Shown here: positions 51,462 through 64,000 of the stretch, in pieces | Layout of the letters: every line of letters starts with the position of its first letter | Numbering within the stretch: position 1 is the stretch's first letter | NCBI RefSeq assembly: GCF_044324785.1 | Contig: NZ_CP172127.1 | DNA: 64,000 nt | Direction: 5' to 3' (one strand) | DNA from: Escherichia coli | GTDB lineage: Bacteria > Pseudomonadota > Gammaproteobacteria > Enterobacterales > Enterobacteriaceae | Notes under the pieces: model-generated | The model's database searches: none | Seen by the model: the letters and a program-made list of their open reading frames with translations, nothing else | Told to the model about the DNA's origin: nothing | Translations under genes and position numbers: made by a program

Positions 51462-54400
51462 ATGAGTGAAGGACCAGGCGGGCCACAGGGAGCGACCGCA
51501 GGCGGTACGCTGGCAATGCGAATGCTGTCACAGCAGGCGATGGTCGCCAGCCAGATGAAACGGGCAGCCAACGACAAAGCCATTGCACAGATGTTGGCAT
51601 CAAAAAAGTCTGGCCCCCCCGCCGCCAGGCTGGGCGATGAAATTCAGCACAAGAGTTTTTTGGGGGCGCTGGCAGGGGCCGTGCTGGGGGCGATAGTGAC
51701 CATCGCAGAAGGTTGCCTGATTATCGCCGCCTGTGCCACCGGCCCTTATGCGCTGGTTCTGGTGCCTGCGCTGATGTATGCCAGCTATAAGGCGAGTGAT
51801 TATGTGGAGGAGAAACAGAACCAGCTTGAATCCTGGATAAACAGCTTTTGTGACAAGGACGGGGCCATCAATACTGGTTCTAAAAATGTAAACATTAACG
51901 GAAAGCCCGCTGCCAGGGCCGCCGTCACACTTCCCCCTCCTCCCCTGACTGAAGCAATACCCTCTCCACCACAGGGGGAACCTTCATGGGGGGATATTGC
52001 CACTGACCTGCTTGAATCGGCAGCGGAAAAAGCAGTGCCACTGGCGAAGGCCTGGGGGAACGCTGTTATCACCCTGACGGACAGCAATGCCAGTTTTATG
52101 GATCGCTTATGTGCAGGCACATCGCTTCTGTTTCCCTACGGCCCGGTATTAATGGAGTTTGCCACCATGGTGGGCGGGCGTGGCGAAATCAAAAAAGACG
52201 TGGATTTCCCGGAAGCCGGTGAAGACACGGCGCTCTGCGACAAGGAGACTAAACCGCCGAGGATAGCCCAGGGCAGCAGCAACGTCTTCATCAACAATCA
52301 GCCTGCCGCGCGCAAGGGCGACAAACTGGAGTGCAGCGCGGCAATCGTGGAAGGTTCGCCGGACGTCTTTATTGGGGGTGAGCAGGTCACCTATCTGGAT
52401 ATCCAGCCGGAGTTCCCGCCGTGGCAGAGAATGATCCTGGGGGGAATAACGATAGCCAGCTATCTTCTGCCGCCAGCGGGACTGCTGGGAAAAATGAAGA
52501 ATCTGGCGAGACTCGGCAAACTGGGAAACCTGCTGGGGAAAAGCGGGAAGCTGCTGGGCGCAAAACTCGGCGCATTGCTGAGCAGAACAAAAAATGCCCT
52601 GAAAAATACGTATAACGTCCTGAAAAAGTTTATCAAAGATCCGGTTGACCCGGTAACCGGCGCGTACTGCGACGAACGTACCGACTTCACCCTGGGCCAG
52701 ACCCTCCCCCTCTCCTTCACCCGTTTCCACAGTTCTGTACTGCCACTGCATGGCCTGACGGGCGTGGGCTGGAGCGACTCCTGGAGCGAATACGCCTGGG
52801 TGCGTGAACAGGGAAACCGGGTGGATATCATCAGCCAGGGAGCCACGCTGTACTTTGCCTTCGACGGAGACAGTGATACGGCGGTTAACCCGTATCACGC
52901 CCAGTATATCCTGCGCCGCCGCGACGATTACCTGGAGCTGTTCGACCGTGATGCCCTGAGCAGCCGCTTCTTTTATGACGCCTTTCCGGGAATGCGCCTG
53001 CGCCACCAGGTGACCGGCGATACCAATGATGACCGCCTGGCACACAGCCCCGGTGACCGGATGTACATGCTGGGCGGAATGAGTGACACCGCCAGCAACC
53101 GCATCACGTTTGAGCGCGACAGTCAGTACCGGATCACGGGTGTCAGTCACACCGACGGGATCCGGCTTAAACTGACGTACCACGCCAGCGGCTACCTGAA
53201 AGCCATTCACCGCACGGATAACGGCATACAGACGCTGGCGACCTACGAACAGGACGAACGGGGACGGCTGACAGAAGCGGATGCGCGGCTGGACTACCAC
53301 CTGTTTTATGAGTACGACGATGCGGACCGGATCATCCGCTGGTCCGATAACGACCAGACGTGGAGCCGTTTCACCTACGATGCACAGGGCCGGTGCGTGA
53401 CCGTCACCGGGGCGGAAGGCTATTACAACGCCACGCTGGACTATGGTGACGGCTGCACTTCCGTGACGGACGGCAAGGGCATTCACCGTTATTACTATGA
53501 TCCTGACGGCAATATCCTGCGGGAAGACGCGCCGGACGGCAGTACCACCACGTATGAATGGGATGAATTCCATCACCTGCTGGCCCGCCACTCCCCTGCC
53601 GGACGGGTGGAGAAATTTGAATACAACGCCGTACACGGTCAGTTAAGCCGTTACACGGCGGCAGACGGCGCGGTGTGGCAGTACCGCTATGATGAGCGCG
53701 GCCTGCTCAGCAACATCACCGACCCTGCCGGGCAGACGTGGACACAGCAGTGTGATGAACGCGGCCTGCCGGTAAGTCTGGTGTCGCCACAGGGCGAAGA
53801 GACCCGGCTGGCGTACACGCCACAGGGGCTGCTGTCGGGGATATTCCGCCAGGATGAACGGCGTCTGGGCATAGAGTACGACCACCACAACCGGCCGGAA
53901 ACACTCACCGACGTGATGGGCCGTGAACACCACACCGAATACAGCGGTCACGACCTGCCGGTGAAGATGCGCGGCCCCGGCGGTCAGTCAGTGCGGTTAC
54001 AGTGGCAGCAGCACCATAAACTGAGTGGCCTTGAGCGGGCAGGAACCGGCGCGGAAGGATTCCGCTACGACCGCCACGGCAACCTGCTGGCGTACACGGA
54101 CGGTAACGGCGTTGTCTGGACAATGGAATACGGCCCGTTCGATTTGCCGGTGGCGCGAACGGACGGTGAAGGCCACCGCTGGCAGTACCGCTACGATAAA
54201 GACACGCTGCAACTGACAGAAGTCATCAATCCGCAGGGTGAGTCATACCGTTATATTCTCGACAACTGTGGCCGGGTGACGGAAGAGCGTGACTGGGGCG
54301 GCGTGGTCTGGCGTTACCGCTATGACGCCGATGGCCTGTGTACCGCCAGGGTTAACGGCCTGGAGGAAACTATCCTCTACAGCCGGGACGCCGCAGGCCG

Positions 54401-56324
54401 CCTGGCAGAAGTCATCACCCCGGAAGGCAAAACGCAGTATGCGTATGACAAATCCGGCAGGCTGACGGGTATCTTCAGCCCGGACGGCACATCACAGCGC
54501 ACCGGCTACGACGAACGCGGGCGGGTGAATGTCACCACTCAGGGCAGACGGGCCATTGAGTACCACCACCCCGATGAACACACCGTTATCCGCTGTATCC
54601 TGCCACCGGAAGATGAACGCGACAGACACCCCGGTGAATCCCTGCTGAAAACCACCTACCGCTACAACGCCGCCGGAGAACTGACGGAGGTTATCCTGCC
54701 GGGGGATGAGACGCTGACGTTCAGCCGTGATGAGGCAGGACGTGAAGTGCTCCGGCACAGTAACCGGGGTTTTGCCTGTGAACAGGGCTGGAATGCAGCC
54801 GGTCAGCTTACCAGCCAGCGCGCCGGATTTTTCCCGGCGGAAGCCACATGGGGCGGACTGCTCCCCTCACTGGTGCGGGAGTACCGTTACGACAGCGCGG
54901 GCAATGTGTCGGCTGTCACCAGCCGGGAAGACTACGGACGGGAAACACGGCGGGAGTACCGGCTGGACCGGAACGGCCAGGTCACAACGGTGACAGCCTC
55001 AGGCACCGGGCTGGGCTATGGCGAAGGCGACGAGACTTATGGCTATGACAGCTGCGGCTACCTGAAGGCGCAGTCTGCGGGCAGGCACCGGATAAGTGAA
55101 GAGACTGACCAGTATGCCGGAGGCCACCGGCTGAAACAGGCCGGAAACACGCAGTATGACTATGACGCCGCAGGCCGGATGGTCAGCCGCACCAGACACC
55201 GTGACGGCTACCGCCCGGAAACAGAGCGGTTCCGGTGGGACAGCCGGGACCAGCTGACCGGGTATTGCAGCGCACAGGGGGAGCAGTGGGAATACCGCCA
55301 CGACGCCAGCGGCAGGCGGACGGAAAAACGCTGCGACCGGAAGAAAATCCGTTTTACGTACCTGTGGGACGGCGACAATATTGCGGAAATCCGGGAATAC
55401 CGCGATGATAAACTGTACAGCGTACGGCACCTGGTGTTTAACGGCTTTGAGCTGGTAAGCCAGCAGTGCAGCCGGGTACGGCAGGCGCATCCGTCCGTGG
55501 CCCCGCAGTGGGTGACGCGAACGAATTATGCGGTGAGCGACCTGACAGGCCGCCCGCTGATGCTCTTTAACAGTGAAGGTAAAACCGTCTGGCGGCCGGG
55601 ACAGACCAGCCTGTGGGGGCTGGCACTCAGCCTGCCCGCAGACACCGGCTACCCGGACCCGCGCGGGGAACTGGACCCGGAAGCCCCCCCCGGCCTGCTG
55701 TATGCGGGACAGTGGCAGGATACGGAATCGGGGCTGTGCTATAACCGGTTCCGGTATTACGAGCCGGAAACCGGAATGTACCTGGTGAGTGATCCGCTGG
55801 GGTTGCAGGGAGGTGAGCAGACTTACCGGTATGTGCCTAATCCTTGTGGGTATGTTGATCCGCTGGGGCTGGCAAAAACCAGTATTATAAAATCTTCTAC
55901 AGGCAAAATCCCACAAGGGTTAACAAAAAGCGAATTTGAGATTTTTTCAAAAAAATTAAAGGATGTATTAGCCCGAGAGGGAATCTCGACAGAGAATGTG
56001 TTTGTACATGGCAGTAGAGCCAGAGGAGATGCTGTATCAGGTGTTTCAGATATTGATATAAAAGTGATCCTTAGTGATAAAGATTTTGGTGCCTTTGCAG
56101 CAAGACGTATTGCTGAGTCCTCAGGAAGGACTCGAAATTTAATCAGGAAGGCCGTTGCTAAAAATCAAAAAATAAATTCAAGAGGAATTTCTAAAACTTT
56201 TGAATCTACTGTATGGGATGAGGTTTTCACTACCTTACCAAAAGGTGAGTTTTCAAGCATTCAAGTTTCTGTTATGACCAAAACTTCACCATTCAACACT
56301 AATCCGAGTATTATATTACCATGA
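51462..56324 (+). CDS. prePAAR/PAAR-domain Rhs effector with C-terminal polymorphic toxin domain, 1620 aa
   Basis: N-terminal AARLGDEIQH prePAAR motif and TM helices, split PAAR region, YD/Rhs repeats, PxxxxDPxGL-type demarcation (PNPCGYVDPLGL), then an AT-rich 150-aa C-terminal extension. Confidence 0.92.
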   Translation: MSEGPGGPQGATAGGTLAMRMLSQQAMVASQMKRAANDKAIAQMLASKKSGPPAARLGDEIQHKSFLGALAGAVLGAIVTIAEGCLIIAACATGPYALVLVPALMYASYKASDYVEEKQNQLESWINSFCDKDGAINTGSKNVNINGKPAARAAVTLPPPPLTEAIPSPPQGEPSWGDIATDLLESAAEKAVPLAKAWGNAVITLTDSNASFMDRLCAGTSLLFPYGPVLMEFATMVGGRGEIKKDVDFPEAGEDTALCDKETKPPRIAQGSSNVFINNQPAARKGDKLECSAAIVEGSPDVFIGGEQVTYLDIQPEFPPWQRMILGGITIASYLLPPAGLLGKMKNLARLGKLGNLLGKSGKLLGAKLGALLSRTKNALKNTYNVLKKFIKDPVDPVTGAYCDERTDFTLGQTLPLSFTRFHSSVLPLHGLTGVGWSDSWSEYAWVREQGNRVDIISQGATLYFAFDGDSDTAVNPYHAQYILRRRDDYLELFDRDALSSRFFYDAFPGMRLRHQVTGDTNDDRLAHSPGDRMYMLGGMSDTASNRITFERDSQYRITGVSHTDGIRLKLTYHASGYLKAIHRTDNGIQTLATYEQDERGRLTEADARLDYHLFYEYDDADRIIRWSDNDQTWSRFTYDAQGRCVTVTGAEGYYNATLDYGDGCTSVTDGKGIHRYYYDPDGNILREDAPDGSTTTYEWDEFHHLLARHSPAGRVEKFEYNAVHGQLSRYTAADGAVWQYRYDERGLLSNITDPAGQTWTQQCDERGLPVSLVSPQGEETRLAYTPQGLLSGIFRQDERRLGIEYDHHNRPETLTDVMGREHHTEYSGHDLPVKMRGPGGQSVRLQWQQHHKLSGLERAGTGAEGFRYDRHGNLLAYTDGNGVVWTMEYGPFDLPVARTDGEGHRWQYRYDKDTLQLTEVINPQGESYRYILDNCGRVTEERDWGGVVWRYRYDADGLCTARVNGLEETILYSRDAAGRLAEVITPEGKTQYAYDKSGRLTGIFSPDGTSQRTGYDERGRVNVTTQGRRAIEYHHPDEHTVIRCILPPEDERDRHPGESLLKTTYRYNAAGELTEVILPGDETLTFSRDEAGREVLRHSNRGFACEQGWNAAGQLTSQRAGFFPAEATWGGLLPSLVREYRYDSAGNVSAVTSREDYGRETRREYRLDRNGQVTTVTASGTGLGYGEGDETYGYDSCGYLKAQSAGRHRISEETDQYAGGHRLKQAGNTQYDYDAAGRMVSRTRHRDGYRPETERFRWDSRDQLTGYCSAQGEQWEYRHDASGRRTEKRCDRKKIRFTYLWDGDNIAEIREYRDDKLYSVRHLVFNGFELVSQQCSRVRQAHPSVAPQWVTRTNYAVSDLTGRPLMLFNSEGKTVWRPGQTSLWGLALSLPADTGYPDPRGELDPEAPPGLLYAGQWQDTESGLCYNRFRYYEPETGMYLVSDPLGLQGGEQTYRYVPNPCGYVDPLGLAKTSIIKSSTGKIPQGLTKSEFEIFSKKLKDVLAREGISTENVFVHGSRARGDAVSGVSDIDIKVILSDKDFGAFAARRIAESSGRTRNLIRKAVAKNQKINSRGISKTFESTVWDEVFTTLPKGEFSSIQVSVMTKTSPFNTNPSIILP
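55872..56321 (+). other. Rhs C-terminal toxin domain, candidate nucleotidyltransferase fold
   Basis: HGSRARGDAVSGVSDIDIKV matches the hG[GS]-x(9-13)-DhDh nucleotidyltransferase signature by eye; sharp drop in GC at the DPLGL boundary. Confidence 0.55.
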
Positions 56325-56671
56325 AGAAAAAAGATATTAGATTTGCAATATCCATTAACTCCAACTTAAGTAAGATAGAATTAATGGAAAAAATTAAAAA
56401 TATAATCCCAGGGCTTATTGAAATAACTTCCAGTGCATTAAGAGAAGAAAAAAACATGGTAGTTATTGAAGAAAATGATCTTTATGACCCTATAAAAGCA
56501 GAGGGAGCTGATGGATGGATGTATTATAAATTCATATTATCCATATTCCCATTAAAGGGAGTGGAAACAACATTAGAATATCAACGGGAATTATCTTTTC
56601 TTTTCTTAAAGAAAATAAAAGATGCGGGCCTGTTGGGTGAACTTATATGCGAGGATGATTTTCATGACTGA
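56321..56671 (+). CDS. Putative cognate immunity protein for the Rhs toxin, 116 aa
   Basis: ATG overlaps the rhs stop (ATGA); AT-rich small ORF immediately downstream of the toxin domain. Confidence 0.7.
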   Translation: MKKKDIRFAISINSNLSKIELMEKIKNIIPGLIEITSSALREEKNMVVIEENDLYDPIKAEGADGWMYYKFILSIFPLKGVETTLEYQRELSFLFLKKIKDAGLLGELICEDDFHD

Positions 56672-56719: not shown

Positions 56720-56880
56720 CAGGGAAAGATCGTGGCGAAATCAAAAAAGACGTGGATTTCCCGGAAGCCGGTGAGGACACGGCGCTCTGCGACAAGGAGA
56801 ACAAACCACCGAGGATAGCCCAGGGCAGCAGCAACGTCTTCATCAACAATCAGCCTGCCGCACGCAAAGGGGACAAACTG
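56720..56880 (+). repeat. Displaced copy of an rhs PAAR-region fragment (matches about 52180-52328), flanked by 'cagggaaagat' 11-mers
   Basis: About 150 bp near-identical to the main rhs gene; left flank carries the same 11-mer that begins the H-repeat element. Confidence 0.8.
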
Positions 56881-58171
56881 CAGGGAAAGATCACGTAACG
56901 CTGCTTTTTTGTACTAAATAATTCGCATTTTATGTTTAAAAATTGAGATATTCCTCATTACCTAAAGCTGTTTTTTATTGCTTATACATGATCAAATACT
57001 CCTTACATAATTAAGGAGAACAAAATGGAACTTAAAAAATTGATGGAACATATTTCTGTTATCCCCGATTACAGACAAGCATGGAAAGTAGAACATAAAT
57101 TGTCAGATATTCTACTGTTGACTATTTGCGCCGTCATTTGTGGTGCAGAAGGCTGGGAAGATATAGAGGATTTTGGTGAAACACATCTCGATTTTTTGAA
57201 GCAATATGGTGATTTTGAAAATGGTATTCCTGTCCACGATACCATTGCCAGAGTTGTATCCTGTATCAGTCCTGCAAAATTTCACGAGTGCTTTATTAAC
57301 TGGATGCGAGATTGCCATACTTCAGATGATAAAGACGTTATTGCAATCGATGGAAAAACACTCCGGCATTCTTATGACAAGAGTCGCCGCAGGGGAGCGA
57401 TTCATGTCATTAGTGCGTTCTCAACAATGCACAGTCTGGTCATCGGACAGATCAGGACGGATGAGAAATCTAATGAGATTACAGCTATCCCAGAACTTCT
57501 TAACATGCTGGATATTAAAGGAAAAATCATCACAACTGATGCGATGGGTTGCCAGAAAGATATTGCAGAGAAGATACAAAAACAGGGCGGTGATTATTTA
57601 TTCGCTGTAAAAGGAAATCAGGGGCGGCTTAATAAAGCCTTTGAGGAAAAATTCCCACTGAAAGAATTAAATAATCCAGAGCATGATAGTTACGCAATTA
57701 GTGAAAAGAGTCACGGCAGAGAAGAAATCCGACTTCATATTGTTTGCGATGTCCCTGATGAACTTATTGATTTCACGTTTGAATGGAAAGGGCTGAAGAA
57801 ATTATGCATAGCAGTCTCCTTTCGCTCAATAATAGCAGAGCAAAAGAAAGAGCCAGAAATGACGGTCAGATATTATATCAGTTCTGCTGATTTAAACACA
57901 GAAAAGTTCGCCACAGCAATCCGAAACCACTGGCACGTGGAGAATAAGCTGCACTGGCGTCTGGATGTGGTAATGAATGAAGACGACTGCAAAATAAGAA
58001 GAGGAAATGCAGCAGAATTATTTTCAGGGATACGGCACATCGCTATTAATATTTTGACGAATGATAAGGTATTCAAGGCAGGGTTAAGACGTAAGATACG
58101 AAAAGCAGCTATGGACAGAAACTACATGGCGTCAGTCCTTGCGGGGAGCGGGCTTTCGTAATCTTTCCCTG
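56881..58171 (+). mobile_element. H-repeat (ISAs1-family) insertion sequence, complete copy, about 1.29 kb
   Basis: Terminal inverted repeats cagggaaagatcacg (left) and cgtaatctttccctg (right); contains an intact transposase ORF. Confidence 0.85.
57025..58161 (+). CDS. ISAs1-family (H-repeat-associated) DDE transposase, 378 aa
   Basis: Full ORF with AAGGAG ribosome-binding site; [50 protein letters not shown]... typical of E. coli H-repeat ORF-H proteins. Confidence 0.88.
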
Positions 58172-58174
58172 GAC

Positions 58175-58396
58175 ATGACGATTATTGTTCGTTCAAATCC
58201 GAGTAAAGCCGCTATTCTTGAAGAATTTTTACATGGTACACAAGAGAAACTAGGAATAGCTGAAAAATTAGGACGTTATGGACTAGGGAGTGCAGAAACG
58301 CACGTTAAGGATTTCATGATAAGACACAAAAAAATGCTTGGGTTATCTGATGAGGATGTAGCAATACTCAAAATATTGAAAGACAAGGGGTTGTGA
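58175..58396 (+). CDS. Hypothetical small protein, 73 aa (possible toxin C-terminal remnant or immunity protein)
   Basis: ATG 3 nt after the IS right end; ORF-track frame 58139..58396 begins inside the IS. Confidence 0.35.
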   Translation: MTIIVRSNPSKAAILEEFLHGTQEKLGIAEKLGRYGLGSAETHVKDFMIRHKKMLGLSDEDVAILKILKDKGL

Positions 58397-58683
58397 TGAA
58401 TATAATTCTGCCGATAAAAGATATATTTATTATTGCGGGAAACATAGTTTTTAGCGTTTTATACAATGAACATATTGAGTTCCCATGCCGCTGCCAATTA
58501 CTATCTTCAAATTCTGAAGTTATGCAAGAGTTATATATTGAAAAAGAGTTATTTATTAAACGCACTACAGAAAATGATTGTCGTGCTTTAGTGTTAAGAG
58601 GAACATTGGAATACTTATTTGATGAAATTATTGCTGGCGATTGTGCATTGGCCTTATTACAAAAAGAAATAAAAAAAGATTAA
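58393..58683 (+). CDS. Hypothetical protein, 96 aa, candidate orphan immunity protein
   Basis: ATGA overlap with the preceding ORF; AT-rich; position within the Rhs orphan array. Confidence 0.45.
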   Translation: MMNIILPIKDIFIIAGNIVFSVLYNEHIEFPCRCQLLSSNSEVMQELYIEKELFIKRTTENDCRALVLRGTLEYLFDEIIAGDCALALLQKEIKKD

Positions 58684-58895
58684 TCCAATATGTAGAACTG
58701 GACAATACCCATCTTTTAACAATGAACTTCGTAATTTTTATCTTAGAAATAATGCTACATTATATGAGGTATATCATGAAGTAATTCATGCCAAGCAATT
58801 TGCGAAAATATTTCTATCGGAGGTGCTGATGCACCATCTAATATGAGACTTATGGATATAATGACACATACAACTCATCATAAATATTACAGGCC

Positions 58896-59264
58896 TTGGG
58901 AATGATAAATAAAATAGTGAAAAAAATGTTGGTTTCATATAGCCCTAAGAAACCGGAGTCTAGGGGCGGGGATTTTGTTATTCCGTTGTTTTTTAATGAG
59001 AAAGTTTCTTTTTTTAGCATAAAAAGTGGCAAGCCAGTGCGATATGGTCTTATGGTATTTACAGGGAAAGTAATTACCATAGATGATATTCTTAGTAAAG
59101 TTCGTTTTCCTGATGTTATGAATGAGCAAAATATTCAACCGTTAATTGACTTTATTAATAACATTAGCGATTTTAAAATAGGGGATGTTATTGAAATTGA
59201 TGATAATGGTAAATTGAAAGTTGTGCCAAAATCAGCAGGACACCCTGTGAGTAAATTGCCATGA
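58896..59264 (+). CDS. Hypothetical protein, about 120 aa, candidate orphan immunity protein
   Basis: AT-rich ORF (ATG at 58902); its stop lies about 20 bp before orphan rhs homology begins, in the same frame. Confidence 0.45.
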   Translation: MGMINKIVKKMLVSYSPKKPESRGGDFVIPLFFNEKVSFFSIKSGKPVRYGLMVFTGKVITIDDILSKVRFPDVMNEQNIQPLIDFINNISDFKIGDVIEIDDNGKLKVVPKSAGHPVSKLP

Positions 59265-59284: not shown

Positions 59285-62051
59285 CTGTTTTTGCCAGTGG
59301 GACGAATACCATCACCTGCTGGCGAGGCTGTCTCCGGCAGGACGGCTGGAAAAGTTTGACTATCATCTGACACTCGGTCAGTTAAGCCGTTACACGGCGG
59401 CAGACGGCGCGGAGTGGCAGTACCGCTATGATGAGCGCGGCCTGCTCAGCAACATCACCGACCCTGCCGGGCAGACGTGGACACAGCAGTGCGATGAACG
59501 CGGCCTGCCGGTGAGTCTGGTGTCGCCACAGGGCGAAGAGACCCGGCTGGCGTACACCGCTCAGGGGCTGCTGTCGGGGATATTCCGCCAGGATGAACGG
59601 CGTCTGGGCATAGAGTACGACCACCACAACCGGCCGGAAACACTCACCGACGTGATGGGCCGTGAACACCACACCGAATACAGCGGTCACGACCTGCCGG
59701 TGAAGATGCGCGGCCCCGGCGGTCAGTCAGTGCGCTTACAGTGGCAGCAGCACCATAAACTGAGCGGCATTGAACGTGCTGGAACCGGCGCGGAAGGATT
59801 TCGCTATGACCGCCACGGCAACCTGCTGGCCTGGACGGACGGCAACGGTGTTGACTGGACAATGGAATACGGCCCGTTTGATTTGCCGGTGGCGCGAACG
59901 GACGGTGAAGGCCACCGCTGGCAGTACCGCTACGATAAAGACACGCTGCAACTGACAGAAGTCATCAATCCGCAGGGCGAGTCATACCGTTATATTCTCG
60001 ACAACTGTGGGCGGGTGACGGAAGAGCATGACTGGGGCGGCGTGGTCTGGCGTTACCGCTATGACGCCGATGGTCTGTGTACCGCCAGGGTTAACGGCCT
60101 GGAGGAAACCATCCTCTACAGCCGGGACGCCGCAGGCCGCCTGGCAGAAGTCATCACCCCGGAAGGGAAAACGCAGTATGCGTATGACAAATCCGGCAGG
60201 CTGACGGGTATCTTCAGCCCGGACGGCACATCACAGCGCACCGGCTACGACGAACGCGGGCGGGTGAATGTCACCACTCAGGGCCGACGGGCCATTGAAT
60301 ACCACCACCCCGATGAACACACCGTCATCCGCTGTATCCTGCCACCGGAAGATGAACGCGACAGACACCCCGGTGAATCCCTGCTGAAAACCACCTACCG
60401 CTACAACGCCGCCGGAGAACTGACGGAGGTTATCCTGCCGGGGGATGAGACGCTGACGTTCAGCCGTGATGAGGCAGGACGTGAAGTGCTCCGGCACAGT
60501 AACCGGGGTTTTGCCTGTGAACAGGGCTGGAATGCAGCCGGTCAGCTTACCAGCCAGCGCGCCGGATTTTTCCCGGCGGAAGCCACATGGGGCGGACTGC
60601 TCCCCTCACTGGTGCGGGAGTACCGTTACGACAGCGCGGGCAATGTGTCGGCTGTCACCAGCCGGGAAGACTACGGACGGGAAACACGGCGGGAGTACCG
60701 GCTGGACCGGAACGGCCAGGTCACAACGGTGACAGCCTCAGGCACCGGGCTGGGCTATGGCGAAGGCGACGAGACTTATGGCTATGACAGCTGCGGCTAC
60801 CTGAAGGCGCAGTCTGCGGGCAGGCACCGGATAAGTGAAGAGACTGACCAGTATGCCGGAGGCCACCGGCTGAAACAGGCCGGAAACACGCAGTATGACT
60901 ATGACGCCGCAGGCCGGATGGTCAGCCGCACCAGACACCGTGACGGCTACCGCCCGGAAACAGAGCGGTTCCGGTGGGACAGCCGGGACCAGCTGACCGG
61001 GTATTGCAGCGCACAGGGGGAGCAGTGGGAATACCGCCACGACGCCAGCGGCAGGCGGACGGAAAAACGCTGCGACCGGAAGAAAATCCGTTTTACGTAC
61101 CTGTGGGACGGCGACAATATTGCGGAAATCCGGGAATACCGCGATGATAAACTGTACAGCGTACGGCACCTGGTGTTTAACGGCTTTGAGCTGGTAAGCC
61201 AGCAGTGCAGCCGGGTACGGCAGGCGCATCCGTCCGTGGCCCCGCAGTGGGTGACGCGAACGAATTATGCGGTGAGCGACCTGACAGGCCGCCCGCTGAT
61301 GCTCTTTAACAGTGAAGGTAAAACCGTCTGGCGGCCGGGACAGACCAGCCTGTGGGGGCTGGCACTCAGCCTGCCCGCAGACACCGACTACCCGGACCCG
61401 CGCGGGGAGCTGGACCCGGAAGCCGACCCCGGCCTGCTGTATGCAGGACAGTGGCAGGATACGGAATCAGGGCTGTGCTATAACCGGTTCCGGTACTACG
61501 AGCCGGAAACCGGAATGTACCTGGTGAGTGATCCGCTGGGGTTGCAGGGGGGTGAGCAGACTTACCGGTATGTGCCGAATCCTTTAAGATATAAAGATTT
61601 CTATGGGCTTAGTAAGAGTTCAATAATAACGAGAGGAAAGAATGCTGGTCATGGCTATGCAGCCAGCGTTACACCTGGAGGCAAAGGTACGGTGTTGGCT
61701 GGTCACGGAGGATCAAAATTTGGCGATAAAATGATTATACCAGAAGGCGTATCGATAACGATGCCGAGAGATGGTATTAAAATATCAGATATGACTGGAA
61801 AATTACTGGAATCTGGTAATGTGGATGATATAATTAAAGCTGCAAGTAATAATCCTCGTGTAGCTAGCGATCTTGAAGGTTGGGTTACTTATTTGCCCGG
61901 CACTGAAATCCCTGATTATATTTTAAAACCACCCACCAATCTTAACATACTGGAAAATTCAGTAACGGTGAACACTTCAACTTATTTATCTCAAATGGTA
62001 AATGCTGGTCAAGGTAATGTAATCTGGGCTGCATGCACCGAATTTTTTTAA
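59285..62051 (+). CDS. Orphan rhs C-terminal cassette (Rhs core repeats plus alternative toxin domain); no canonical ATG, first in-frame start is GTG at 59511
   Basis: Near-identical to the main rhs from about aa 700 onward, then diverges at a degenerate PNPLRYKDFYGL motif into a distinct roughly 147-aa AT-rich C-terminus. Confidence 0.8.
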
Positions 62052-62065
62052 CGCGGGGTAATCGT

Positions 62066-62548
62066 ATGTATTTTAAAGATGATACTGACTATACATATTT
62101 CCTTCCTAATGAATATTTTTTACACGGGGTGAAAAATGTGGGCTGGATAGACAGAGAACACCCCTTCACAAAAGGGATTAGTGACGCTGAATTTATTGAA
62201 AAGTTAAAAGCAATAATTCTAACAGAGAATGAAGCAACTTGTTTTTCAGTTAATAAAATAAGAGGATTTCACAAATGTAATTTTTGCAATAGTGAAATGA
62301 TAACAATAACCGATGGAAGAAAAAAAGGATACCTTGGCATGAGTGAAATATGGATTCCATCCATCCACCATAATGAGTATTACGCGTTTCCTTCATTAAT
62401 TTTCCATTATATAACATCTCACATGTATAGACCACCAGAGGACTTTATTGTATCTGTTTTAAACTTGAATTTAAGCGAGAGTTTTTGCGCTCAAAACATA
62501 TATGACAATAAAATTAAGGAATTAAAAATAGACTTCTGGTTTCGTTAA
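62066..62548 (+). CDS. Putative immunity protein for the orphan Rhs toxin, 160 aa
   Basis: ORF-track frame 62033..62548; ATG at 62066 just after the orphan toxin stop; AT-rich, Cys/His-containing. Confidence 0.6.
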   Translation: MYFKDDTDYTYFLPNEYFLHGVKNVGWIDREHPFTKGISDAEFIEKLKAIILTENEATCFSVNKIRGFHKCNFCNSEMITITDGRKKGYLGMSEIWIPSIHHNEYYAFPSLIFHYITSHMYRPPEDFIVSVLNLNLSESFCAQNIYDNKIKELKIDFWFR

Positions 62549-62559
62549 AGCTGGTAATT

Positions 62560-62917
62560 TAACTTATCGGGAATACCGCTATGATGGCAGTTTCAGACGG
62601 ACGGAGAAATGCTGTCAGCAAAAAGACTTCCGCTTCGCGTATCTGTGGGGCATGGGGATAATTTATCTTCATCAATTGATATATTGATTAATGGCAAGGA
62701 GGCCATTGAAATTCCGTAAGGCCAACTTGATATGACGCCTGGCACACAGCCCCGGTGACCGGATGTATATGCTGGGCGGGATGAGCGACACCGCCAGCAA
62801 CCGCATCACGTTTGAGCGCGACAGCCAGTACCGGATCACGGGTGTCAGTCACACCGACGGGATCCGGCTTAAACTGACGTACCACGCCAGCGGCTACCTG
62901 AAAGCCATTCACCGCAG
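62560..62917 (+). pseudogene. Degenerate rhs core fragments (one matching about 55270-55380, one matching 53038-53214 of the main rhs)
   Basis: Two short stretches of rhs homology, the first degenerate, the second truncated by the H-repeat insertion at 62915. Confidence 0.7.
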
Positions 62918-64000
62918 GGAAAGATCACGTAACGCTGCTTTTTTGTACTAAGCAATTCGCATTTTATGTTCAGTATTTGAGATACTCCTTATAACACAAA
63001 CCTGTTTTTCATAGCTTATATATGTAGGAAAAGATCACGTAACGCTCCTTTTTTGTACTAAATAATTCGCATTTTATGTTTAAAAATTGAGATATTCCTC
63101 ATTACCTAAAGCTGTTTTTTATTGCTTACACATGATCAAATACTCCTTACATAATTAAGGATAACAAAATGTAACTTAAAAAATTGATGGAACATATTTC
63201 TATTATCCCCGATTACAGACAAGCCTGGAAAGTGGAACATAAATTATCGGATATTCTACTGTTGACTATTTGTGCCGTTATTTCGGGTGCAGAAGGTTGG
63301 GAAGATATAGAGGATTTTGGGGAAACACATCTCGATTTTTTAAAACAATATGGTGATTTTGAAAATGGTATTCCTGTTCACGATACCATTGCCAGAGTTG
63401 TATCCTGTATCAGCCCTGCAAAATTTCACGAGTGCTTTATTAACTGGATGCGAGATTGCCATACTTCAGATGATAAAGACGTCATCGCAATTGATGGAAA
63501 AACACTCCGGCATTCTTATGGCAAGAGTCGCCGCAGGGGAGCGATTCATGTCATTAGTGCGTTCTCAACAATGCACAGTCTGGTCATCGGACAGATCAGG
63601 ACGGATGAGAAATCCAATGAAATTACAGCTATCCCTGAACTTCTTAACATGCTGGATATTAAAGGAAAAATCATCACAACTGATGCAATGGGTTGCCAGA
63701 AAGATATTGCAGAGAAGATACAAAAACAGGGCGGTGATTATTTATTCGCTGTAAAAGGAAATCAGGGGCGGCTTAATAAAGCCTTTGAGGAAAAATTTCC
63801 ACTGAAAGAATTAAATAATCCAGAGCATGACAGTTACGCCATTAGTGAAAAGAGTCACGACAGAGAAGAAATCCGTCTTCATATTGTTTGCGATGTCCCT
63901 GATGAACTTATTGATTTCACGTTTGAATGGAAAGGACTGAAGAAATTATGCGTGGCAGTCTCCTTTCGGTCAATAATAGCAGAACAAAAGAAAGAGCCAG
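62915..64000 (+). mobile_element. Second H-repeat (ISAs1-family) element, partial (runs off the window); 5' end carries a degenerate about 110-bp duplicate of the IS left end
   Basis: cagggaaagatcacgtaacgctgc... repeated at 62915 and again (ggaaaagatcacgtaacgctcc...) at 63027; the rest is near-identical to the first copy. Confidence 0.8.
63197..64000 (+). CDS. ISAs1-family transposase, second copy, partial at window end; ancestral start codon is followed by TAA (ATG TAA) so translation could only begin at the Met7-equivalent
   Basis: aaaatgtaacttaaaaaattgatggaacat versus aaaatggaacttaaaaaattgatggaacat in copy 1; downstream frame intact to the window end. Confidence 0.6.

Follow-up and report, generated by a model that had tools for sequence, protein, structure and literature searches.

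Between an insertion sequence (IS) and an orphan rhs gene of Escherichia coli, three small AT-rich open reading frames (ORFs) occupy positions 58172-59264 of the window, i.e. the whole stretch of 64,000 nucleotides (contig NZ_CP172127.1) that was analysed, which is an exact match to the chromosome of E. coli strain N3 (NZ_CP031609.1). What these ORFs are, and whether they still serve the cell, is the question raised by this locus. The original prediction, made from the DNA letters, regarded them as possible relic toxin/immunity modules. Rhs C-terminal toxins have partner immunity genes, and older tips, once displaced, come to lie downstream as orphan modules (PMC3150448; PMC3032704). Our analysis makes it very probable that the interval is composed of such displaced relics, namely one toxin stump followed by an intact ORF2, a scrap of a Tox-MPTase4 toxin, and the tail of an HNH toxin, which had gone unnoticed, followed by an intact ORF3, an orphan immunity gene by this reading. 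The identity of the individual ORFs as relics or immunity genes, as judged from sequence, seems if anything slightly more secure, whereas a present protective function of ORF2 and ORF3 is possible at a little under even chances.

All three ORFs were confirmed on the plus strand. ORF1 (58175-58396) starts with ATG and encodes 73 amino acids (aa), its frame being open also from a TTG at 58139 inside the IS. ORF2 (58396-58683; ATG start, 95 aa, alternative GTG at 58393) and ORF3 (58902-59264; ATG start, 120 aa, alternative TTG at 58896) are intact. The GC content here is 0.30-0.34 (33% for the interval), whereas that of the rhs core is about 0.62. When 58172-59264 was shuffled 5000 times, stop-free runs of 120 codons or more had P=0.0025, and no shuffle contained all three observed runs together; the three ORFs are thus far longer than expected by chance.

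ORF1 is the 3' remnant of a gene for an Rhs C-terminal toxin, which we name after its EEFLHGTQ motif. The remnant (58172..58396, plus strand), within which ORF1 lies, shares about 99% identity with the toxin gene 3' ends of other E. coli, and ORF1 itself equals the last 73 residues of an intact PAAR-Rhs protein of 1603 aa in strains SC422 and N1286, its ATG being an internal Met codon of the parent toxin gene. This protein terminates with …DLMGVEKAAPELL…KDKGL, and the ORF2 allele of these strains overlaps its stop codon by 1 nt. The truncated toxin C-terminus that had been proposed for ORF1 has thereby found its parent. In our model of the toxin, ORF1 begins at residue 61 of a 133-residue region; it has lost the first 60 residues, with two of the three predicted strands and two helices, and retains the motif helices and every invariant motif residue (EEFLHGTQ, E101 and K105). 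Having neither a delivery part nor the N-terminal 60 residues, ORF1 would be expected to be inert. Position 58204 of the window (toxin codon K71) is an endpoint at which deletions or rearrangements recur, and no microhomology is obvious there: four upstream partners, namely a VgrG, a DcrB/Eag-like protein, an Rhs core and a PAAR region (L059 4000/4001; P0046, P0110, P0051), share this one right endpoint, directly before KAAILEEFLHG.

The left boundary of the remnant is set by an ISAs1-family IS (H-repeat/ISEc1-like; 56881..58171, plus strand). Its 378-aa transposase (57025-58161), named ISAs1 family transposase by the NCBI Prokaryotic Genome Annotation Pipeline (PGAP), carries the DDE domains of the family (DDE_Tnp_1_assoc, PF13808, 2.4e-34; DDE_Tnp_1, PF01609, 3.2e-29), and the element is bounded by terminal inverted repeats of 25 nt (56881-56905 and 58147-58171). 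The right end of the IS is thus 58171 and homology to the toxin gene of other strains resumes at 58172, in agreement with the earlier placement of the ORF1 start 3 nt past the IS. The flanks, a PAAR-region fragment on the left and the toxin tail on the right, show no target-site duplication; therefore the IS marks a deletion or recombination junction rather than a simple insertion. About 4 kb of an rhs gene has been removed at this junction.

The parent toxin belongs to a widespread family. The conceptual 118-aa domain has 117 homologues with 42-71% identity, besides near-identical E. coli fragments, and one homologue is fused to a PT-HINT domain. None of the 117 is annotated by Pfam over the toxin region, and the domain itself has no match in Pfam or NCBIfam. 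A scan of one genome per species located it in 46 loci of many phyla, including Gamma-, Beta- and Alphaproteobacteria, Myxococcus, Bacteroidota, Chloroflexota, Acidobacteriota, Planctomycetota, Verrucomicrobiota, Cyanobacteria/Melainabacteria and an anammox bacterium. The domain is present at the C-terminus of long proteins such as VgrG (locus L011), Rhs of Photobacterium and of an Opitutaceae metagenome-assembled genome, and others. Invariant in the alignment are E76-E77-F-L-H80-G-T-Q, E101, K105, F107 and M108. The motif is therefore EExxH (E76-E77-F-L-H80, with E101 also invariant) and differs from the HExxH of zincins and of small gluzincin/zincin-like hydrolases such as the ArdC metalloprotease domain (6sna), Spartan SprT (6mdx), YbeY and projannalysin. 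A Foldseek search of the PDB with the toxin model gave no match (best E 0.9), and PDB sequence searches with the toxin profile and with ORF3 returned nothing useful. Full-text literature searches for the EEFLHGTQ motif or the WP accessions retrieved no paper. Given no Pfam or NCBIfam match and no paper by motif or accession, the toxin and immunity families of ORF1 and ORF2 appear to be undescribed.

ORF2 is the predicted cognate immunity gene of the EEFLHGTQ toxin. In all E. coli copies that were inspected, its start overlaps the stop codon of the toxin gene. The original prediction had an ATGA overlap at this place; instead, the junction reads GTGATGA, so that the ORF1 stop (TGA, 58394-58396) overlaps ORF2 by 1 nt (TGATG) with the ATG or by 4 nt (GTGA) with the alternative GTG. 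An ATGA overlap is found further downstream, between the HNH toxin tail and ORF3 (58902-58905). The order of toxin followed by immunity gene is conserved across taxa: among 45 toxin loci unlike those of E. coli, 40 have an ORF of 86-114 aa starting within a few nt of the toxin stop, and two metagenome contigs share the layout of toxin and then small ORF. Scans of ORF1-ORF3 against Pfam and NCBIfam gave noise only, but a hidden Markov model (HMM) built from the downstream ORFs of other phyla, with ORF2 excluded, matches ORF2 from end to end (residues 1-93, 21.7 bits, E 8.6e-9, one planned test). Of the 546 open segments in the six frames of the window, ORF2 was the sole match to this HMM (E 5e-6), the next segment scoring 3.5 bits. 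A phmmer comparison of ORF2 with the downstream ORFs had given no match, and a single-sequence search of 1.84 billion representatives yielded 12 matches, all near-identical copies or fragments.

The DNA of ORF1 and ORF2 is present at an identity of at least 98% in 550 of 5426 complete E. coli genomes, and ORF2 is annotated as an intact coding sequence (CDS) in essentially all of those sampled. It is unchanged (WP_001021473.1) where the toxin was lost independently, by an IS1 just upstream in strain 2017-02-1CC and by a deletion from PAAR to the toxin tail in HCM-25C-3. This protein is the common allele, from which ORF2 of N3 differs by two residues.

The parent toxin itself is mostly out of frame. 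SC422 and N1286 carry a GGGGG run, and a single frame of 1603 aa passes through …DPLGLNKGASLSKMMNSSSDLMGVEKAAPELL…ILKDKGL. Most other carriers, strain 214-4 among them, have the ORF1 sequence as the 3' portion of an 86-aa ORF just past the main Rhs; the frame of this ORF is open further upstream and would be joined to the Rhs frame by one extra G in a GGGG run. The run (locus L002 7864-7887 versus locus L008 5863-5887) is in the upstream part of the toxin gene, which is not in the window. A 76-nt probe over it has an exact match in 20 of the 558 E. coli genomes with an ORF1-type toxin, while the remaining 538, or 96%, fall in a band of 95-99% identity; those listed are 98.7% identical over a 75-nt span, which corresponds to a one-base deletion. 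This deletion (G4) frameshifts the toxin just after the Rhs core, and the immunity gene is intact in those strains. Since 538 genomes lie outside the exact G5 match and the listed ones are G4, the toxin of most carriers is taken to be frameshifted. Programmed -1 frameshifting at the G4 run was discarded as unsupported, since the site lacks an X_XXY_YYZ heptamer and some alleles (G5) are in frame; a one-base deletion is the more economical explanation.

Downstream of ORF2 lies a second set of toxin remains, the first of which was absent from the original prediction. Between ORF2 and ORF3, about 33 codons at 58710..58810 (plus strand) are an internal fragment of a Tox-MPTase4 zincin toxin, with HEVIH at 58775-58789 and with neither a start codon nor an immunity gene. 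Its PF15640 score of 27.1 bits (E 4.3e-6) is above the cut-off of 25, and the match covers profile positions 53-86 of 132, which amounts to a quarter of the domain only. PGAP annotates it as a zincin-like metallopeptidase toxin pseudogene, and it is 86% identical to part of the zincin C-terminal (CT) domain of an orphan Rhs in strain N1286. From 58809 onwards the window is 99% identical to, and collinear with, strains DETEC-S792 and PS2Canimalfeces12, in which an Rhs tip bearing an HNH signature ends at ORF3 (…GYHVDHIVPISIGGADAPSNMRLMDIMTHTTHHKYYRPWE and stop), the ATG of ORF3 overlapping this stop as ATGA. Of this HNH-type Rhs toxin the window retains the final 32 codons at 58809..58905 (plus strand), which end with …ISIGGADAPSNMRLMDIMTHTTHHKYYRPWE and a stop codon. 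The full-length HNH CT (locus L003) scores 20.5 bits with PF01844, just under the cut-off of 21.4; PGAP names the PS2Canimalfeces12 copy 'HNH endonuclease signature motif containing', and one homologue has a precomputed PF01844 match. Breakpoints in the mosaic of homologies are thus seen at 58171/58172, at 58784/58785, where homology to strains of the 214-4 type ends, and at about 58809.

By its position and its relatives, ORF3 would be the cognate immunity gene of this HNH-type Rhs CT. In Salmonella Oranienburg an HNH-CT homologue is followed by a 120-aa protein with 58% identity to ORF3, and in Rhodobacteraceae KLH11 by a 121-aa protein with 29% identity (E 5e-15). A single-sequence search of 5.8 billion proteins with ORF3 gave one cluster, and its relatives surfaced only when the search was started from the HNH toxin. 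The impression from single-sequence searches that ORF2 and ORF3 are near-orphans was thus overturned by context-guided comparison. Homologues of these genes adjoin Rhs toxins in other genomes and the frames are conserved, which speaks for the original assignment. In PS2Canimalfeces12 (locus L004, 6777-10491) the modules stand in a different order, with the HNH CT, a frameshifted ORF3, an orphan rhs core tipped by an ORF1-type toxin (G4), and ORF2, from which it follows that modules have been shuffled between strains.

The locus may have arisen by successive replacement of the rhs 3' end, which would have displaced the modules, with IS insertion and deletion eroding them thereafter. If transcribed, ORF2 and ORF3 would bind and block the cognate toxin injected by a competitor, and such blocking would render N3 resistant to toxins that it no longer makes. 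Any role is most likely a passive one.

The explanation that competes best with such a role is that the ORFs are true relics but now silent, neutral debris, ORF2 and ORF3 being intact for lack of time to decay and offering no protection. We hold this to be a serious possibility, if not quite the favoured one. Several observations point in its direction and weigh against lasting protection. A scan for promoters and terminators gave results at the level of chance (10 promoters against 9.1 expected). Within E. coli the cognate toxins are either rare or broken: the in-frame EEFLHGTQ toxin is confined to the 20 G5 genomes out of 558, the 538 others differing from it and all inspected ones being G4 frameshifts, which makes the threat a rare one, and no undamaged full-length Rhs with the HNH CT was found among complete E. 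coli genomes. ORF3 occurs in just 3 of 5426 complete E. coli genomes, one of which, PS2Canimalfeces12, already has it frameshifted; its Shine-Dalgarno sequence is weak, and the upstream toxin gene, a possible source of translational coupling, is lost. Near-identity of the E. coli copies rules out a test for purifying selection. However, ORF2 is intact in about 550 genomes, including those in which the toxin was lost independently by IS1, deletion or frameshift, and it is preceded by a reasonable Shine-Dalgarno-like sequence (AAGGGG, 5 nt before the ATG). Read-through from the IS transposase gene or from the main rhs operon is also possible. We keep to displaced relics, in which protection by the two immunity genes is a tentative addition.

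A second explanation, which we consider very unlikely, is that ORF1 remains an active toxin fragment and forms an internal toxin-antitoxin pair with ORF2. An orphan Rhs of Salmonella is reported to work as such a pair (PMC7043789), and in ORF1 all invariant motif residues are kept, an immunity gene lies next to it and the frame is open into the IS end (TTG 58139). However, two strands out of three and two helices of the predicted fold are missing from ORF1, no Shine-Dalgarno sequence precedes it, and its ATG is internal to the parent gene.

Still less can be said for a functional meaning of the frame that ORF3 shares with the orphan rhs, whether as a stop-codon read-through fusion or as translational coupling. 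The shared frame that had been pointed out is real, since homology to the rhs core begins at 59298 in the frame of ORF3 and no stop occurs from 59265 up to the core; the gap is 33 nt and not about 20 bp as first given. Three E. coli strains share the junction. However, a shared frame is expected by chance in one case out of three, some 900 nt separate the ORF3 homologue from the rhs homology in Salmonella (locus L056), no mechanism is known, and an immunity-Rhs fusion would lack PAAR and delivery parts. A meaning for the shared frame was rejected on the chance expectation and the different spacing in Salmonella. The sole Rfam match in the interval, to the eukaryotic small nucleolar RNA snoZ40 at 59111-59166 in ORF3, is sub-threshold (25 bits against a gathering cut-off of 50, E 0.05) and almost certainly a chance match in AT-rich DNA.

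Just as improbable is the reading of the ORFs as non-coding chance frames in AT-rich DNA, to which the lack of Pfam and NCBIfam matches, the almost exclusively E. coli copies in single-sequence searches and minus-strand stop-free runs of 103 and 94 codons might seem to point, and which is refuted by homology (ORF1 to a toxin domain with 50-70% identity across phyla, ORF2 by its profile match, ORF3 to proteins of Salmonella and Rhodobacteraceae) besides the 0/5000 shuffles.

The relic reading leaves room for a question about how the ORF2 family might neutralise its toxin. An AlphaFold2 model of ORF2 is a beta-barrel (pLDDT, the predicted local distance difference test score, 86), and its predicted fold matches domain II of translational GTPases (EF-Tu domain II-like beta-barrel), with GH110 glycosidases and phage tail proteins reaching similar scores. 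In a profile search of PDB sequences all 10 matches were EF-Tu, weak ones (E 0.3-1), pairing the N-terminal 'kFemkVtdvFqlsdgktVfag' of the immunity family with a stretch of EF-Tu. Alignment by hhalign to an E. coli EF-Tu domain II sequence gave a probability of 48% (P 1.8e-4) over 26 columns. These models are suggestive, without being proof, of an immunity protein that mimics the target or a cofactor of the toxin. It is conceivable, at a rather low probability, that ORF1 and ORF2 represent the E. coli form of an undescribed multi-phylum toxin/immunity pair with a toxin of about 120 aa carrying an invariant EEFLHGTQ…E-x-H-V-K-D-F-M, maybe a gluzincin variant with Glu in place of the first zinc-binding His, and an immunity protein that is a structural copy of EF-Tu domain II; the toxin would dock on or cleave a translational GTPase, either EF-Tu or a relative of it, and its immunity protein would act as a target decoy.

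The interval lies in a vgrG–PAAR-Rhs island associated with a type VI secretion system (T6SS), which other strains have between cusS and nfrB/nfrA. The island comprises vgrG, a DcrB-related (Eag-type) gene, the main PAAR-Rhs, a small gene, the PAAR-region fragment and the ISAs1-family IS, followed by ORF1-ORF3, an orphan rhs core with an Stv-like tip, a DUF7919 gene, a second ISEc1-like IS and nfrB/nfrA. On the plus strand, the main PAAR-Rhs (51462-56324, 1620 aa) has a nucleotidyltransferase domain as its C-terminal tip, and the small gene after it (56321-56671) would be its immunity gene. The rhs PAAR-region fragment (56731..56880, plus strand), an incomplete PAAR domain protein according to PGAP, abuts the left end of the IS, and its translation resembles residues ~238-286 of the main Rhs. 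The orphan rhs core fragment (59298..62051; Pfam Stv 6e-13 for the CT) is followed by the gene of a DUF7919 protein (62033..62548; PF25535, 4.4e-34), its presumed immunity gene, both again on the plus strand. The main PAAR-Rhs is unbroken in the window; the RefSeq annotation of N3 gives it as a 'frameshifted, incomplete' RHS pseudogene and, separately, a nucleotidyltransferase CDS of 108 aa. A small rhs-core fragment (ORF 62763-62951) precedes the second ISEc1-like copy, the left end of which (about 110 nt) is present in tandem at 62911-63024 and 63021-63134, with 86-95% identity to 56877-56990.

As an annotation result the outcome is modest: three 'hypothetical proteins' become, by our reading, one toxin stump and two orphan immunity genes. 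The locus illustrates a route of rhs erosion through cutting by IS elements, nested deletions and the shuffling of modules among strains. It also leads to a prediction, namely that N3 should resist competitors with the in-frame toxin, which is carried by 20 genomes, e.g. SC422 and N1286. Of wider value is a toxin domain with no Pfam or NCBIfam match that is carried on VgrG, Rhs and other proteins from Proteobacteria to Cyanobacteria and Planctomycetota. If confirmed, the EF-Tu domain II-like immunity fold would point to a new toxin target or mechanism.

Known systems with which the proposed mechanism may be compared are the EF-Tu-dependent toxins of contact-dependent growth inhibition (CDI). 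The immunity proteins in complexes of CDI toxins with EF-Tu are not known to be EF-Tu mimics. The parent toxin of ORF1 has no sequence relation to the CdiA-CT of E. coli NC101 (CdiA-CT/CdiI/EF-Tu, PDB 5i4q), and it is only through the predicted fold that the ORF1/ORF2 pair might be linked to these toxins. As compared to the Tox-MPTase4 (PF15640) and HNH/EndoVII polymorphic toxin domains, both counterparts in the window are fragments. Orphan immunity gene arrays of T6SS loci are also known, e.g. the acquired interbacterial defence clusters in Bacteroidales. Another example is the poly-immunity cluster reported for a PAAR-Rhs effector of Stenotrophomonas (bioRxiv 10.64898/2026.07.13.738213). The present locus resembles these arrays in having immunity genes that outlast their toxin and could defend the cell against non-kin attackers. 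In contrast to such arrays, there are two genes only, each with a toxin stump, formed by decay in situ and not as an acquired island.

The closest likeness is to the orphan rhs-CT/rhsI modules or 'C-terminal tips' (Poole et al. 2011, PMC3150448; Koskiniemi et al. 2014, PMC3967940; E. coli W genome paper, PMC3032704), which lie downstream of the main rhs in the same orientation. Here, too, all ORFs are on the plus strand downstream of a full-length main PAAR-Rhs, and the toxin parts are homologous to the CT region after the DPxGL motif in full-length Rhs of other strains (SC422/N1286 for ORF1; DETEC-S792/PS2Canimalfeces12 for the HNH tail). Each immunity ORF starts at or overlaps a toxin stop (TGATG or GTGA for ORF2, ATGA for ORF3), and the DNA is AT-rich, mosaic between strains and associated with an H-repeat/ISAs1 element. 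However, classical orphans keep an rhs core and DPxGL and can be re-fused to the main rhs by recombination, whereas both are absent before the two stumps of 73 and 32 codons, the first being cut by the IS at 58171/58172 and the HNH tail being joined to the Tox-MPTase4 scrap. With no rhs core or DPxGL on either stump, re-fusion to the main rhs and reactivation are impossible. In other respects orphan rhs-CT/rhsI relics are a known, fairly ordinary and well-understood kind of locus, and the three ORFs of N3 would be an eroded example of it.

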